Under the pieces are notes generated by a model. The model did no database searches. It was given only the letters and a program-made list of their open reading frames with translations, and had not been told where the DNA came from. A stretch of DNA of 64,000 bases, taken from the NCBI GenBank assembly GCA_039545335.1, contig BCIN01000003.1, positions 1,871,941 to 1,935,940 on the forward strand, written 5' to 3'. Shown piece by piece: positions 32,898-42,650 of the stretch. Origin of the DNA: Kondoa subrosea (Eukaryota). Positions within the stretch are counted from its first letter, which is position 1, and every line of letters starts with the position of its first letter. The position numbers and the translations under genes were made by a program.

Positions 32898-33676
32898 ATG
32901 GGAAAGCCAGGAGGTATTCAAGCAGCACGCAAGCTTCGCAGAGACCGAAGAGAGAACAGATGGGCAGACGCAGGCTACAAGAAGCGTGTACGGCATGAAT
33001 CTTCAGCAGAGAAAAAAAGATGCATCAAGCTAATTCATGGGATGGATGTGAACAGGCTTTGGGAACAGCATACAAATCCAGTCCAACAGGAGGATCTTCT
33101 CACGCCAAAGGCATCGTACTTGAGAAAGTCGGTGTTGAGGCCAAACAGCCCAACTCTGCTATCCGAAAGTGTGTGCGTGTGCAGCTGGTAAAGAACGGAA
33201 AGAAGGTCACTGCTTTCGGTGGGTGACGATTCTCGGGTGCAGCCCATTGAAAGGCTTACTCATCGATTTTGTCCACAGTACCAAACGATGGTTGCCTGTA
33301 AGCATGAACTGTTACAGAGCAAGACTATGGCTGACGTTTCCATGAAGAAACTTCACCGATGAGAACGGTAAGTGTCAATCAAGATGTGCTAGATTTAGCT
33401 CAATTCGATTGCATCATTTACAGACGAAGTCCTGATTTCTGGTTTCGGTCGCAAGGGTAAAGCCAAGGGAGATATTCCTGGTGTGCGATTGTTAGTTGGC
33501 TCAATCCGCAGCGAAAAGTTTGGCTGAATTATGATCGTTTACAGCAAGGTTGTCAAGGTATCTGGTGTTGGTCTTCTTGCGCTCTGGAAGGAGAAGAAGG
33601 TAAGGAGCCAGGGGATGATCTTGAGTCTATGCTCATCACACTTCTTCTTGCCTTACAGGAAAAGCCTAGATCATAG
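32898..33676 (+). CDS. RPS23: 40S ribosomal protein S23
   Basis: [13 protein letters not shown]..., [37 protein letters not shown]...KEKPRS. Confidence 0.98.
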
Positions 33677-34239
33677 AGATCCGAGTACTGGATTGCGCAT
33701 TTGTACTCTTTTCGAATGCCATCTACATTCAATCATTCTGTGATTCTCGTCTGCATGCTCGCTCCATCGTCTGCTCGTAAACTCGATGGAATCGGATGTG
33801 TCTTGGTCAATTCCGTTGAGCTGCGTGATCGTGAAATCAGCATAATTCTGGAAAGAGGTTTCGGAACAGTAAGTAAAGCAAAGCTTAACAGTCGCACAGC
33901 GCGCTGTAGCAGCGAAGAATGCATGAAAGATGACTGAACTCCAGCTGACTTTCCTCAAACCAAGCTCTCGCGAATATGCATCTCCTTCAATTAGCGGTAC
34001 AGTGTGGCATCGTCACGTCACATTAGCATTGTAGGTTATAGATTGACACCACATCGGCCTCGTTGCTATCGTCTACACTGGCACTCTCAACACCATCGAC
34101 TCAATTTGAGGATTGCGTAAACCTTGATATAAGACCATTTGCGTTCTCGGATACTCCGATACTCACTGCGGCCGACTGGAAGTGGTCTGCTTCAGGCTCT
34201 CGCGCTCAAACGAGCTCTATAAGTCGTTTCAAGCTAAAC

Positions 34240-36297
34240 ATGGACAACAAACGCAAATCTCAGTCTACGGCCTCGCCTGGTAATGCAAAGAGGCAGCGAC
34301 TGGAGACTCCTACTTTGCGAGATGATGGATCTTCCGGCCTATCCTCTGTTCCAGCGTCTCAAACCTCAAACCAGCCTGACAATGATAGTGATGATTCAGA
34401 TGCACCTCTAGCTGAAGCTACTGCTGTCCCAGCCCAATCAGGTGTCTTACCAGCTGGTAAACGACCTAAAACTTCTTCTTCTTCCGCTAAAACGCCATAC
34501 TCTGGCGCTTACCCATTACCATCCCAAACTTCTACACCTGAACCTTCGTCTTATTCTTCACCTGAAAAGATGAAGACCAGTCAAAAGGGTGTAGGAATGA
34601 GTCGGACTATAGGATTACACAATTCTTTAGCTATGTCAACTGGAAGTTCACCTGAAATATCGCTGGCCAAAGTTCAACAACGACATCGGGATGCATTACA
34701 AGCTGAAGTAGCGGCTTCTCATGAAGAAGAACGATCAGCTTTGGCAGATGCGAGGAGAGAAGTTAAAGCTGAAGAAATGGAAGAAACTTTGGATGCTTTA
34801 GCTAGTGGAATGCCAGTAGATGCAGGAGATGATTCAACTAGTGGGAGTAAAGGACCAGAGAAAGAAAGACCAGCAATAACTGAAGAAAGAGCAAGAATAA
34901 TAGTCTTCACTACAGTCTCCAACTCTGAAAAACCAATCTCTCCCGCAACTCTCATCATCCTTACTGGATTGAAGAATATTTTCCAGAAACAATTACCGAA
35001 AATGCCTAGGGAATATATTGCCAGATTGGTCTTTGATCGGGAACATTGGAGTATGGCTATAGTCAAAAGAGGATATCAAGTTGTAGGAGGAATCACTTAT
35101 CGACCTTTCGAACAAAGAGGGTTCGCGGAAATCGTCTTTTGTGCAATCACAGGGACAGAGCAAGTCAGGGTGCGTCGGATGATTGCCCAACCTCAGCATC
35201 AAGCTGATTCAGTGCCTTTGTCGTTGAGCACAGGGATATGGCTCGCATCTTATGAATCACCTCAAAGACTATGTTCGGGCAGCACATCCAGGCATCAATC
35301 ATTTCTTGACCTACGCAGACAATTATGCGGTTGGCTACTTCAAGAAACAGGTGCGTCTGCTAATGAGCCAGCTGTACCAGCTTACTCGTGTGATTGATGC
35401 ACAGGGCTTTACTAAAGAAGTTACACTGGATCGGGCAATGTGGGCAGCCTACATCAAAGATTACGAAGGTGGTACATTGATGCAGGTCAGTATTGCCATC
35501 AATTATTCACATCGAGTGATTGATTGAAATGGATGTCTGACAGTGCACTATGTTACCTCGAATCAGCTATCTGGAAGCAAGAGAGATGCTAGCAAGACAG
35601 AAGGAAGTCATCATGGCCAAAATCAGACAAGTCTCGAGATCGCATATCGTCTATCGCGGTAGAGACGTCTTTCCGGACGACAGTATCACACAAGTGGATG
35701 CACAGGATGTTCCTGGTCTGAGTATGCCTGCTTGATCAACATGATGTGTGCGAGGCTAATGAGATTCTTAGGGGAAGTCGGTTGGAACCCTGCTATGGAT
35801 GAATTGACTCGAAGACCGCAAAGAGGACCTCAGCATATGATCATGCAACGCTTATTGACAGATCTGCAAGCTCATCCTTCTGCTTGGCCGTTCATGAAAC
35901 CTGTCAATAAGGAAGAAGTCCAAGATTACTATGACGTGCGTCCGGCGTCGCTAGCTTTGATCAATGGGCTGATATATCGCATTACAGGTGATCAAGAACC
36001 CAATGGGCAAGTCTCTTGATTTATGAACAAATTCAAGGGCTAATGCTGATGGAATAGATCTTGAAACTATGGAAACTCGTTTGGAAGCAAATCATTATCC
36101 AGACTTACCAGCTTTCTTGAAAGATGCGGATTACATCTTTCAAAACTGTCTCTCTTACAATTCCAAGGAGTCAAACTATGCAAAGAACGCTATCAGGCTG
36201 GAGAAATACCTCAAGGTCAGTCCCTTCTCTTCGCTGATGGCAGATGCTGATGCTATTACGATAGGAGCGAGTCAAGACATACGTTGAAGAGGTGTAG
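34240..36297 (+). CDS. GCN5: Histone acetyltransferase Gcn5 (GNAT + bromodomain)
   Basis: [65 protein letters not shown]....DYYDVIKNPMDL. Confidence 0.97.
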
Positions 36298-36554
36298 CCT
36301 TGACAGACGGAGAGTATTGCGCTCCGATGAAGCAGTCTTGGATTCAGCATCTTCCAAGCGCAACTGTTCCTGAAAGCCCTATACGGAACTGATCATCTGA
36401 TTGAGTGTACAAATGCATATATCTTCAGCTCTCGAGCAGCTCTTCTTGTCCTTCTCGAGCTTTCGGCAACACCGGCTTCTTGATCCGCTAAGTAGCGTCA
36501 CGAATTCTCGCAGACCTCTCTTTCACCACAAACCACTCAAAGTCTATAACAAAC

Positions 36555-37649
36555 ATGTCTGACGCTCTAAGGTAGGCTCTCAGATAGCTGTCACTGCTCT
36601 CTGCTCACTCCAGCGCGCAGAGAATCCACTGGTCTGTGACCTTTGTCCGAGGTCAAGGCGTGCTTTCGTCTGACATGCGTGTCCTCTCTCTTTCTCAGGT
36701 GACAAGGTTCGCGCATGCTCCTACTATTTGGCTCTTGCGCTCATAGCGTTGCCTACAGCTCGCTCGCAACGTGTAAGCGAAATAGCCTTATTGAGGTTGT
36801 ACGCGTACTTACATCTTTGGCTAGGCAACCTGACTCAACCAAGTCTACCACTGACAAGATCGCTGACTCTGCTCGTGATGCTGTGAGTCATTGAGCACCG
36901 CTCTACCCTTTTCACATGAATCTCTTTGTTTCTGACATCCCGCGCTAGTATGAATCCGTTGCCGGCTCGTATGTTTGCTGTCTCGTAGGCTCGGCAAAGC
37001 TCTAAGTGTATGGTACAGCGTCCAGCCCAACTCTGAGAAGAGCGCTTTCCAATCCGCTTCTGACTCTCTCGGTAACAATGACAAGACCACTAGCGCTTCT
37101 GGCCAAACTTTGACCCAGCAAGCTATGAGCGTACGTTGCGACTCTTTGTCAATGCTGTTTTGGCGCTAATGTCATGTGATAGGCTGTTGGCATGAACCCC
37201 GTATGTCGATATCTTGGATTGTCTTTCTTTTACTCATCTCTTTTTCTTCTCCTTTACTTAGAACGAAGCTGTTGTTCCTCAAATCAGCTCCACCATCTCC
37301 AACGCCATCAACTCAGTGTCTGAGAGCATCCAGGGTACGTATTGATTATGATGATTTCGTTGCACTGGCTGAAGAATTCACATTGTAGGAAGTGCCGCCG
37401 CTGCTTCGAAGGAAGGCAACAAGGAAGTTGCAAAGAACAGCAACGTAAGACGAGCGAGCGACGGATGATTTTGCTTTCTCAATCTTGTTTTTGGCTAGGT
37501 CTCTGTTGGTGATCGCCTCAACGCTGCCGGCAGTGCTGTCAGCGACAAGCTTGACGAGTCTAGCCACAACGCCAAGGTGAGCTAGAGTCGTACTTAATGC
37601 ACGAAAATTTCACTGACTCCGAGCTTAGTCTGAGGCCTACAAGAACTAA
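36555..37649 (+). CDS. Hsp12/Hsp9-like plus Grg1-like fusion stress protein (12 exons, ~161 aa)
   Basis: All 11 introns are GT-AG and in phase: MSDALRESTGDKLARNVQPDSTKSTTDKIADSARDAYESVAGSVQPNSEKSAFQSASDS (Hsp12-like) ... SNAINSVSESIQGSAAAASKEGNKEVAKNSNVSVGDRLNAAGSAVSDKLDESSHNAKSEAYKN (Grg1-like). Confidence 0.85.
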
Positions 37650-37910
37650 ATTTTCGTTTGGATACATCGGGTTGTAACAAGCAAGCTATCATTATCTGTA
37701 TGAGCTACTGAAAAGTTATGCGCAATGCAATGGGAAAGTTTTTTAGCCTGGCACTTCGCTTTCGCCCTTTTTACTTTCTTCACCTCTTCCATATTTTCTC
37801 CTTGTCTTTGGTCTATTTACATCTTGTGCACACAGATCACATTGGTGATTCTTCTGAAGATGTTTAGCCTGATATTACTATTATTTCAATTTGTTCGTAC
37901 TCAACCGAAA

Positions 37911-37944
37911 AGCTCGCAACGCTGAACAGCTCGCAACGCTGAAC
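37911..37944. repeat. Exact 17-bp tandem duplication (AGCTCGCAACGCTGAAC x2)
   Basis: Read directly; intergenic. Confidence 0.9.
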
Positions 37945-38064
37945 TAAACATGTGCAGCTGCCACACTATCGCCGGCACAGTATCGACGTCGATCTAAGTT
38001 GGCTTACGAACAACTTTACGGCGAGACAAGACTATTCAAGTGTTTCTACCACCAGTACAGAATA

Positions 38065-39265
38065 TTAAAAAGATGTTGCCATTAAGTCTAGCACAGGCTG
38101 TACTGCAACTTCAGCGTCCCGCAGCATATCAGCGCCTTGTAATTGTACGCTTGCACGCCTCAATAGCCCCGTTTGCAATTTTCTTTCGAACAGGGCGGCG
38201 TATGCTCTGATGATAGGGTGCAAGGCATGGCCATGTTCGGTCATACACATTTGGTAATCCTTGAGCACATGTTGAATGAAATTGATGACAATCGGGCGCT
38301 CCTGGCTATGTGTCAGTACTGGATGATACAGAATTACCGCTCTAATACTCACTGAAGCGGGGGAACCTCCATCGTTGGGAACCCATCCAGCTATTAGACT
38401 GGTCTGAATAGCGAAGTGAAGGGCCATGAAAATGATGTGCAACTGTTCTTTCGCCCTGACCCCTGGCGTATCGTACTTAATAGTAGTCAGGGAAGAGCTC
38501 AGTGCATTGAGAATGTCGTCAACTCTTGTTGGAGTAGCGAGGATATTTAATATGCTGGGCGGTGAATATTTCTTGAGTGCCGTTGCGAGTTCTCTTCTCA
38601 AGACGGTCTGATTGCCTGGAGAGGAATTCGATGAGTTCACTTCTAGGACACAAAGGGAACGCTAACATACTCCATGTGAGGTTGGTCAACCATTCCGCTT
38701 GCTTTTGGGCAGTAGTCATTTGCGTCGACGATCCAACAGGTGCAAAGGCCACAAGATACCAATGCTGTCCTTCAGTGACCCATTTCCGGAGTTCTTTGGT
38801 CAAGAAGGAACAGAAGATCTTCCAAATCTCTCCAATGATCGGATAAGCTTTCCAGTGTTCAAAGCGCTTAGTCTGCAGGGTTAAGTGTGCCTTGTAAAGC
38901 TCTTCGAGGGACCTGAAAACCTCTCCGGCGTAGACAACTCGATTCATGTTGCGCTTTGAACGGTCCAGATCAACTTCTTGATGCAAGCTCTGGACTGCGC
39001 GACTTACCTCCAGATCGTCAGATGCTCCGGTAACAGGTTTCCAAATGCGACAAGTCTCGATGAATATGCCGCAATCTTGAAAGAGCTCTAATTCGACCTC
39101 ATATTGATATTCAATATCCCAATGTCGTGAATGAAGAGCATCATCAGGTTGTTGGAATTCAAATGACATGACTGTCAAAGCTCTTCTCTTGGCCGCAAGA
39201 GCATACTGATGAAGATGACCGGGGGCTGGAGGATGAGGAGCAGGAAGAGGAGCTTGTCTGGACAT
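38065..39265 (-). CDS. Orphan hypothetical protein (~360 aa, mostly helical)
   Basis: Two long ORFs joined in frame by a GTATGT...CCAG intron (LTW-S-NQTVLRR); a second in-frame intron is likely. Confidence 0.7.
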
Positions 39266-39660
39266 TCGGAAGTTCTGGCGAAATGGAATTTAGATGAAAG
39301 AGGACAAGACCAAAGGAATCTACGAGGGCAAACATGTCTCAAAGCAAGACAAAGGGAATAGAATACGTCAACTGAATGAAATAAGATCGTGCACCTGAAT
39401 TCTTGCAGGCCGAATGCATCAGTCGAGAAGCTAAAGAGAGACAACAATGGAGAGAGCGCTAATTACGAGCATTGAGAAATAGTCGCGGTGATCCACTAAA
39501 GTGGGTAGGACTGCGCGAACGATATGTGTAGTAGAATGATACAGAGTCCTCAATGTGCAGCAGCAGCAGTCTCGAGCGTGACTGAGAGACTCCGCCGTGC
39601 GCGATCAACCAAGCAACAACAAAATATTCGTTTTTCTGCAACATCGATTATACCCTCTAA

Positions 39661-42618
39661 ATGTCCGATTCAGAGCCTGATTATGATATCACTGCTGGTC
39701 TGTTGGGTGGATCTAGCAAACGGGATAAGGGCAAAGCTCGTGCACCAGTTGCAGACGAGAATGACAGTGATGAAGAAACGCTATTCATCCAAGAGAAGCT
39801 CAATAACCGCTTACTAAAGGATGGAAACGATGCATTGAAAGCATCAAGTAAAGGCAAGAAGGGAACAAGCAAGACTGGACTGACAGGCGGTGGTTCTTTT
39901 CAATCTCTTGGTCTTTCACCTGTCTTGCTTCGTTCTCTGCTTCTCAGAGGTTTCACTGTACCTACACCTATTCAAAGAGCTTCTCTACCTTCTATACTTG
40001 CCAGTCCGCCCAGAGATGTAGTCGGTATGGCTAGAACGGGTTCAGGAAAAACTTTGGCCTATATGATACCTTTGATCCAACGCTTGGGAGGAGCTCATAG
40101 TCCTACTTTTGGTTGTCGAGCACTCGTTATGGTTCCTACTCGTGAATTGGCTTTGCAAGTACTCAGAGTAGGCAAAGATCTGGCTAGAGGTGCAAGAGAA
40201 GCTGGAGTTAAAGAAGGCTTGAGATGGAGCTTGATTGTAGGAGGTGAAGGTATCGAAGAACAGTTTGACGCACTGGCGGATAATCCGGATGTGTGAGTCT
40301 TCTGTTTCGATCTAGCTTAGGCCAGTAACAGATACTGAAGATCCACAGTATCATCGCAACTCCCGGTCGTCTGCTACATCTCACTGTCGAAATGAACCTC
40401 GATTTCAGAGCTGTTCAGCTGGTCATTTTTGATGAAGCTGATCGGTAAGCCCCCAGTCTACAAATAACCGTAACTAGCTGATTCGTGCTTAGACTGTTTG
40501 AACTCGGTTTTGCTACTCAATTGCATGAAATTTTAGCCAAACTACCTCCCACACGGCAGTCTTTACTCTTCTCAGCTACTCTACCTAAAACATTAGTCGA
40601 ATTCGCTAAAGCTGGTCTACAAAACCCTAAGCTTGTTCGTCTAGATGCAGATAGCAAGATCTCTCCAGACCTACAGATGGCTTTCTTGAATGTCAAGCCA
40701 ACGGACAAAGAAGCTGCATTACTTTGTCTACTTCGAGACGTCATCCGCGTACCAACGTCAAAAGATGGCAATGGTCAGAAGCAACATACAGATCAGGATC
40801 ATCTAGCTCTCAAGCGAAAACGCATGTCTGGCAAAGGTCGCAAAGAAGGCAAAGAAACTCTGCCTTACCAGACTCTCATCTTTGCCGCAACGAAACATCA
40901 AGTCGAATTCCTTACTGTCCTATTACAAGACGCTCGCTACACTGTATCACAGATCTATGGTACTTTAGATCAAACCAATCGTGCAATGCAGTTGGCCGAT
41001 TTCAAGGAAGGGCGAACTAACATTCTATGCGTCACGGATTTGGCTGCTCGTGGTATCGATATTCCCCTCTTGGAGAATGTAGTCAACTATGATTTCCCAG
41101 TTGGCAGTCGGTCTTTCGTCCATCGAGTTGGTAGAACAGCTCGTGCAGGTCGAAAGGGTTGGGCTTACTCCATTCTTACAAATCACGAACTACCTCATCT
41201 ACTCGATCTGGAACTCTTCCTCTCCCGTCCTTTAGTTACTTCGCCTGTTACCGGTATTCCAAACTACGCATCTAATCTAGTCATCGGTACTTTCCCTCGA
41301 TTATCTCTTGATGCAGAATTAGAACACATCCAATCTGTTCTTATCGATCCTTCACCTACTCTTATAGCTTTACAAGGAACAGCACAAAGAGGTCAAAAAA
41401 TGTATGAACGTTCTTCAGCCAAAGCTTCACCTGCATCTTATCGACGAGCTAAAGAAATTGTTAAAGCTGGAAAAGGTTTAGCTGGTTCTACAGCTGAAGA
41501 GCCTTCTATTCATCCTATTTTCGAAACTTTGGCTGAAAGAGGTGATGAGAATGCTCAGAGAGCTAGTTTGTTGGCTACTTTGAATGCTTTCAAACCAAAT
41601 GAAACGGTCTTTGAAGTTGGGGCGAGAGGAAACAAGGGAAAAAATGTTGCTAGTCAAGTTATGCAATCTAGGCGGAAGTTGTTGGATGGCAAGATCGAAA
41701 TTCGGAGAGCTAAAGAAGCTGCTGAAGCTGAAGCGGAACAAGAAGAGAAAGATCTCAAGGGAGAGGAAGAGTTTGGTGGATTTGAAGATGATCGAGTAGA
41801 ATTGGTTGAAGGTCTTGAAGATGCGAGTGAAGATGAATTGGAACGCAATTTCGATATGGGTCCAAACAAGTATAAGAAAGCTCGAATGAACGGGTACAAA
41901 GATGAAAGCGTCTATCTTAATTACGCTCAAGAGGGTGCAGCGACCGAAAAGGGGTAAGTGAAAATTGACTCATGTCGAGATGTGACTTGACTGAAGTCAA
42001 ACTCACAGGTACTCCCTGGACGATGGCGCTTCTTTTGCTGCGCAAGCTGCCAAAGCTGCTTTCTCGCTCGAAGCAGCCAATGATGAGCTCAACGGTCCAG
42101 CACCTCAAAGGGCATCGCTACTTCGCTGGGATCGAAAGACGAAACGTATAGTGCAAGGAGATGGTGCCGGCGCTGACAACAAGAAGATCATTCGAACGGA
42201 AAGCGGTTCTCGATTACCTGCATCATTCAGAAGCGGCAAGTACGAGGAATGGAAAGCGAAGAAGAGGGTCATCGTGCCTCGAGTAGGCGATGCTGAACTA
42301 CCTGGTCGACAAGGTGGTTCAGGAGCAGGCGGGAAACGTTGGACGCACAAAGGTGGCCGACCTGGCGGAAAAGATGGAGGTGACGAAGAGTCTAGCAAGA
42401 AGGGCTCTGGTCCGCAGAGAGGCAAAGTACCAGGCACAAAGACCAAGATGCGGAATTCTGCTCACAAAGGTGGAAAACCTGGCGCTGCGAAAGGCGGACT
42501 TCGCAATGTTGATCAGATTGCGAAAGAAAGGAAGCTTAAGGATAATAGGAAGCGACGATCAGAGATGCCTGGGAAGAAGAAGCCGTCTAAAGGCGGTAAT
42601 AAGGGCAAGAAACGTTGA
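39661..42618 (+). CDS. DBP10: DEAD-box RNA helicase Dbp10
   Basis: [63 protein letters not shown]10 C-terminal [19 protein letters not shown]. Confidence 0.95.
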
Positions 42619-42650
42619 TTTAACATTGCAAGCGTCCAGCGCTATCGTGA

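Follow-up and report, generated by a model that had tools for sequence, protein, structure and literature searches.

Hsp12 of S. cerevisiae, a protein of 109 amino acids (aa) belonging to the family PF04119 (Hsp12/Hsp9; PDB 2L9Q, 2LJL, and 4AXP), has been described as disordered in water, as forming four surface helices in SDS, and as forming only helix IV (residues 76-100) in DPC (PMC3234819). It is reported to remodel liposomes and to act with trehalose in desiccation (PMC6054528), and for the Hsp12 of Ustilago maydis, which has 80 aa with the Pfam domain located within the first 53, vesicle stabilisation and prevention of aggregation are described (PMC10423329). The Grg1/Ccg-1/CcgA family (PF11034) includes grg-1/ccg-1 of Neurospora, Grg1 of Aspergillus fumigatus, and the standalone genes at loci L002 and L005-L007 of this study; induction upon glucose starvation, light, or sporulation is a characteristic of the family. 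Grg1/Ccg-1 is presented as the most abundant protein of dormant A. fumigatus conidia in a paper that calls its function unknown (PMC3424117), induction of Grg1 by desiccation and rehydration is reported for bdelloid rotifers (bioRxiv 10.1101/2023.06.16.545282), and the A. nidulans orthologue ccgA appears in a table of a study on AtfA targets (PMC12731236).

The window analyzed here is a stretch of 64,000 nucleotides (nt) of Kondoa subrosea (contig BCIN01000003.1, positions 1,871,941 to 1,935,940) from an assembly of 18.9 Mb in 27 contigs. In this window members of both families, small stress proteins that usually occur separately, are encoded in one single frame at 36555-37649 of the plus strand. 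The gene was rebuilt independently from the letters, and the same model was obtained as in the initial annotation, which had claimed 12 exons, 11 canonical introns, and a frame of about 161 aa: the 12 exons are separated by 11 GT..AG introns of 49-67 nt each, and the coding sequence of 486 nt encodes 161 aa followed by the stop codon (Table 1). Enumeration of the splice paths from the ATG at 36555 yielded only two that reach exon 5 in frame, and the path of 17 codons puts exon 5 at residue 18, the position at which its match begins in the Pfam profile. Donors 1-3 in this part of the gene, which lies outside the RNA cover, are weak (GTAGGC, GTCTGT, and GTTCGC). The gene structure as a whole is considered highly probable.

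Table 1. Features of the Hsp12-Grg1 gene and its upstream region (positions in the window)
Feature	Position	Strand	Remarks
Putative promoter and leader	36418..36554	+	ATATA at -138; CRE half-site CGTCA at -59; C/A-rich leader precedes ATG
Exons 1-4 (microexons of 17/11/8/14 nt), Hsp12 residues 1-17	36555..36772	+	17-codon length equals Pfam offset of exon 5; outside RNA cover
Exon 1	36555-36571	+	
Exon 2	36621-36631	+	
Exon 3	36699-36706	+	
Exon 4	36759-36772	+	
Exon 5, Hsp12 repeat 1 and helix II equivalent	36825..36882	+	HSP9_HSP12 E 1.9e-4; spliced in run X1; high hydrophobic moment
Exon 6	36949..36968	+	Introns on both sides absent from X1 contig
Exon 7, Hsp12 repeat 2 and C-terminal tail; contains ATG 37125 (M79)	37019..37130	+	HSP9_HSP12 E 0.029; alignment to yeast Hsp12 44-78; X1 contig
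Intron 7, phase 0	37131..37182	+	GTACGT..CTAAT..TAG; removal seen by 8-letter loose end only
Exon 8, residues 81-86, end of Hsp12 tail; contains ATG 37192 (M84)	37183..37200	+	Gene model; X1 loose end
Intron 8, phase 0, inferred fusion junction	37201..37261	+	Donor GTATGT; rich in pyrimidines; acceptor TAG; free of in-frame stops; outside RNA cover
Exon 9, extended N-terminus and amphipathic helix 1 of Grg1	37262..37334	+	Grg1 E 0.14; colinear foreign Grg1 contig; moment 0.48
Exon 10, Grg1 core	37389..37444	+	Grg1 E 9.4e-5
Exon 11, Grg1 core	37499..37576	+	Grg1 E 2.4e-8, above curated cut-off
Exon 12 and stop codon	37629..37649	+	C-termini of three standalone Grg1 proteins align with exon 12

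The exon translations were compared with Pfam piece by piece, and all five pieces matched the expected family and no other, HSP9_HSP12 in exons 5 and 7 and Grg1 in exons 9-11 (E-values in Table 1), in agreement with the Hsp12-like N-terminal part and the Grg1-like C-terminal domain of the initial annotation. The curated cut-off was passed by exon 11 only. In the N-terminal part of about 59 residues, scored exon by exon, exons 5 and 7 gave 22.2 and 15.2 bits, which is below the PF04119 cut-off of 26.3, and unlike a typical Hsp12 this half is divergent, with no exon at the cut-off alone. On the 67-position profile of PF11034, exons 9, 10, and 11 cover positions 3-16, 16-35, and 37-61, respectively, and with its neighbors in frame the Grg1 part matches the profile at 56.6 bits.

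The N-terminal half resembles Hsp12 in being small, acidic, hydrophilic, and amphipathic at the position of helix II, and in carrying two QP.S.KS-type repeats (14 of 2,000 shuffles attained their score of 37) that are in register with the Pfam profile and with residues 44-78 of yeast Hsp12. Residues 44-78 also align to yeast Hsp12 44-78 without gaps (E 1.4, weak alone), and yeast Hsp12 was the sole PDB sequence matched at E up to 10. Unlike Hsp12, the protein does not end at about 80-86 aa but reads on into Grg1, and its 161 aa exceed the approximately 80-110 aa of a standalone Hsp12; unlike in yeast Hsp12, the region equivalent to helix IV (76-100) shows weak amphipathicity and contains two prolines. 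Homology between the Hsp12 half and the Grg1 half was considered and rejected (the score was reached by 1,098 of 2,000 shuffles). A likeness of the last helix of yeast Hsp12 to the N-terminal helix of Grg1 was not supported, as the searches returned no Hsp12 match.

As had been claimed, the frame continues past the Hsp12 part without an in-frame stop, and there is no Met at the start position of short-type Grg1 proteins. The nearest Met had been given as lying at about 37192, and this Met is real (M84, at 37192), but a further one, M79, is found at 37125. The fused copy differs from the short type in this missing start Met, in an N-terminus that is eight residues longer, and in its place behind Hsp12; the longer N-terminus resembles a foreign transcript in run X1 (see below). 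The loose end of this foreign Grg1 contig before 37293 runs without gaps over residues 88-97, within the supposed linker between the two domains, and when it was read by eye against the exon 9 frame, three of nine complete codons gave the same residue and most others were conservative. The separate linker of the initial annotation is not supported: yeast Hsp12, the length of U. maydis Hsp12, and the foreign Grg1 transcript would assign its residues to the domains. The Atlas neighbors of exon 7 are two clusters of Hsp12 (83 and 88 aa) and one of Grg1 (81 aa) that is mainly from basidiomycetes (scores below 0.9, used as leads). Judged from these sequences, a dedicated linker is probably absent and the protein would consist of a whole Hsp12 (residues 1 to about 86) and a whole long-type Grg1 (87-161), with a border that probably lies at or near the phase-0 intron 8.

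The RNA evidence came from one public run (X1), the RNA status of which was guessed, aligned at 80% likeness and yielding two contigs. Contig 1 (184 nt, depth 3.1, 95-99% alike) spans 36840-37131 and lacks introns 5 and 6, the short side of these splices having 20 letters. It ends in eight letters that are identical to the start of exon 8, fewer than the 31 letters of the bridging standard; since these eight letters occur once in the compared stretch, a chance match (about 1 in 65,000 per given place) is unlikely. The contig stops just short of the ATG at 37192, and intron 8 (37201-37261) is beyond its reach. Contig 2 (117 nt, depth 67.7, less than 90% alike) is the Grg1 transcript from another organism.

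An Hsp12 gene and a Grg1 gene could be independent neighbors here, their in-frame joint being a coincidence of gene prediction, and such a reading would agree with the separate occurrence of the families at L002, L005-L007, and in the annotation tables of three Pucciniomycotina yeasts as well as with the RNA contigs, which do not reach across intron 8. However, exons 7, 8, and 9 are parted by introns of only 52 and 61 nt with consensus donors, which leaves no space for a 3' UTR and a promoter, and the Hsp12 RNA extends into exon 8. Splice paths from exon 7 were enumerated using GT donors, YAG acceptors, and introns of 40-100 nt (9,858 paths), with donors scored by a rough home-made consensus matrix that was not trained on the K. 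subrosea genome. Fifty-two paths stop before 37334, and only three of these are free of a poor donor, namely those with intron 7 retained, with intron 8 retained, or with the acceptor 37287, the latter two stopping within exon 9; no consensus-like path of this enumeration terminates after exon 8 ahead of the Grg1 coding DNA. Four-fold codons end in C or T in 31/34 cases at residues 1-59, in 20/20 at 60-98 (6/6 at 87-98), and in 25/30 at 99-161, with 34/38 in standalone Grg1 and 325/531 in four neighboring exons (p 5e-5); the bias thus does not break at the junction. The C+A fraction of the 30 nt upstream of M1 is 0.83 (0.73-0.90 in three standalone Grg1 genes) and is lower before the internal Mets (0.57 for M79, 0.33 for M84). 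TATA or CRE words were not found within 36883-37261, and M79 and M84 have no leader, TATA, or CRE word of the kind expected if a standalone Grg1 (about 70-80 aa) had a separate start and promoter. The CGTCA at -59 of M1 is weak alone, because this 5-mer has a frequency of 1.39 per kb in the window. Based on the splice paths, the codon bias, and the leader and promoter evidence, two independent genes are very unlikely.

It is improbable, too, that the fused frame is real but that the gene mainly or also yields separate products, i.e., Grg1-only proteins from M79 or M84 (83 or 78 aa) and Hsp12-only proteins via retention of intron 7 (92 aa, stop at 37167-37169), donor 37205 (87 aa), or acceptor 37287 (98 aa). 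A purine is found at -3 of M79 as well as M84, the size of 78-83 aa fits the Grg1 Atlas cluster of 81 aa, and Hsp12-only paths do occur in the splice enumeration, but the internal ATGs lack the nearby promoter-like elements, intron 7 is spliced out in the sole contig that reaches it, and the acceptor 37287 is disfavored because residues 87-98 carry the full coding bias. The donor 37205 corresponds to the second GT in the donor of intron 8, and its use would bring a stop codon right to the border between Hsp12 and Grg1; it matches the consensus poorly (GTCGAT, 4 nt downstream; score -5.2 vs. 4.2 for 37201). Kex2-processed fungal repeat polyproteins carry a signal peptide, and their units are separated by dibasic cleavage sites. 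The processed polyprotein proposed initially does not conform to this type: there are no KR, RR, KK, or RK pairs in the 161 aa, no signal peptide or membrane segment (maximum 19-residue hydropathy 0.49), and no other evident cleavage motif, and an encounter with Kex2-type proteases is therefore not expected. Although each half is of full length and a proline-containing, non-amphipathic region (76-92) lies between them, cleavage into free Hsp12 and Grg1 is hence regarded as most improbable. Three weak 5' donors and the divergent Hsp12 half might indicate a real gene that is degenerating or silent, yet this can hardly be reconciled with a 161-aa frame that is intact across 12 exons with strong codon bias, with the spliced contig of a close relative that keeps the frame despite three differences (of the two listed, one is silent and one Ser to Asn), and with a genome in which no further Hsp12 was detected. 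As far as the sequence arguments that carry the junction go, the single-frame Hsp12-Grg1 gene is real. One gene with one main mRNA and one uncleaved, cytosolic Hsp12-Grg1 protein that has a stress role through folding on membranes is thus our preferred reading, and as a whole it is assigned a probability of roughly 0.7. Minor single-domain isoforms may occur; for a Grg1-only isoform from the Met of the supposed linker, the leader, TATA, and CRE checks gave no promoter-like support.

The computed properties of the fusion protein are 16.5 kDa, pI 4.9, GRAVY -0.70, and 5.6% Gly, and the two halves have GRAVY values of -0.92 and -0.74 with 5.0 and 6.3% Gly, respectively. The protein resembles hydrophilins and LEA-like desiccation proteins in that it is small and hydrophilic, has few aromatic residues, no Cys or Trp, and predicted amphipathic helices. 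The original definition of hydrophilins is looser in Gly. The thresholds given for the screen in PMC6730492 (GRAVY lower than -1 and 8% Gly or more) are missed in both values, so that by this standard the designation as a hydrophilin does not hold. Among the 18-residue windows listed, the hydrophobic moment exceeds the 99th percentile of shuffled sequences for starts at residues 19-28 and 91-94, with a moment of 0.48 in the windows starting at 91 and 94; starts at 64-82 are at background, and the Hsp12 tail (76-92) is weakly amphipathic and interrupted by prolines 86 and 92. A structure model of the standalone Grg1 at L005, made from the single sequence, is one long helix, which counts little because single-sequence models often give one helix for such proteins.

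According to the preferred reading, the gene would give rise to a single main mRNA and, from it, to a cytosolic protein of 16.5 kDa that stays uncleaved, with Hsp12 placed head to tail with Grg1, and the expression of this protein would be induced by stress or starvation. The chain may be disordered in water and, at the surface of membranes, fold into amphipathic helices arranged in a string, where it could stabilize or remodel membranes and limit protein aggregation, as Hsp12 of yeast and Ustilago does. The N-terminal helix of Grg1 (about residues 88-111) would present a strong amphipathic face close to the position of yeast helix IV (76-100). We consider the odds to lie slightly in favor of this membrane mechanism.

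A distance of 256 nt separates the fusion gene from a preceding bromodomain gene that is Gcn5-like by reading. Within 32900-42620 of the window the neighbors are housekeeping genes (ribosomal S12/S23, the Gcn5-like bromodomain gene, and a DEAD-box helicase) and no cluster of stress genes was found; a nearby frame on the minus strand (38065-39289) has no Pfam match.

A standalone Grg1 of 72 aa is encoded on another contig of the same assembly (L002:1404-1959, minus strand, near 904,400 of C1) by seven exons, with six introns in a coding sequence of 219 nt. Its upstream region contains a TATA box (-99) and a CRE half-site (-115). The fused Grg1 shares 61-64% identity with three standalone Grg1 proteins (41, 43, and 42 of 67 aligned positions), and the L002 protein is 61% identical (41/67) to the fused copy vs. 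85% (60/71) to a foreign standalone Grg1. Only one of the three internal introns of the fused Grg1 (phase 1) is common to this paralog with its six introns. Based on these identities and the single common intron position, the two copies split long ago and are no recent duplicates. A second Hsp12 was not found in the genome by family, protein, or pattern searches, which work exon by exon and which copies with small exons could escape. The pattern search gave 46 matches vs. 26 in the control, and among the 30 of the 46 matches inspected only the two in the fusion gene were Hsp12-like; one further candidate (L011, E 0.5) was unrelated on inspection.

Outside this genome, a metagenome scan returned three Grg1 loci from 456 candidates, none of them fused by inspection, and no Grg1 was found among 593 candidate stretches of prokaryote genomes and 36 of viral contigs. 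At L005 (701-1634, metagenome contig), an intronless Grg1 frame (from the ATG at 1419; Pfam Grg1 E 3e-27) follows a UTP15 C-terminal frame of the same orientation, with 61 nt between the UTP15 stop and the Grg1 start, an adjacency that may reflect a merged transcript assembly. The standalone Grg1 genes at L006:1-490 and L007:1130-1850 are nearly identical and have one intron, and upstream of the L007 gene a full CRE palindrome and more CRE and STRE-like words were seen by eye.

No cluster with both families was shown among 30 Atlas matches for exon 7. Searches with this short, low-complexity query, which missed ordinary Hsp12 proteins too, gave no match at E<=1 among 11 longer candidate proteins and no match among 1.84 billion representatives. 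In the gene tables of Phenoliferia (eight of nine files), Rhodosporidium (at least two Grg1 genes), and Microbotryum (12 of 24 files), which may give one domain per gene, the Grg1 rows listed carry PF11034 alone, PF04119 is absent from these tables, and a search of a Glaciozyma supplement gave no match. The literature search agrees with the initial annotation, which knew of no described fusion, as none was found in titles and the starts of abstracts, although supplements and subscription papers may be relevant here; the chances that automatic annotations already hold Hsp12-Grg1 proteins are near even. In Hsp12-Grg1, two known families are combined in a new architecture. As to its origin, a tandem pair of Hsp12 and Grg1 may have merged upon loss of the Hsp12 stop codon, the intergenic spacer having become, or shrunk to, the phase-0 intron 8, while the old standalone Grg1 paralog would have retained the single-domain role. 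Since no fused relative was found, the fusion may be a recent neutral merger.

We infer from the fusion that Grg1 may work with Hsp12. A bolder proposal, which we regard as tentative and rather doubtful, is that the fusion, conserved and under selection in a lineage of basidiomycete yeasts, is a 'Rosetta stone' that identifies Grg1 as a membrane-binding amphipathic-helix protectant in the pathway of Hsp12; if so, the first helix of Grg1 would replace the main membrane helix of Hsp12 here. One fusion may hint at a common function but does not prove it, because co-regulated, disordered small proteins fuse cheaply. The membrane and anti-aggregation role of Hsp12 has been worked out, and its fusion to Grg1 is a hint that membrane protection may be a role of Grg1 as well. 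Being apparently the only Hsp12 of its genome, the fusion protein offers a concrete hypothesis for Grg1 together with a ready construct for testing it.
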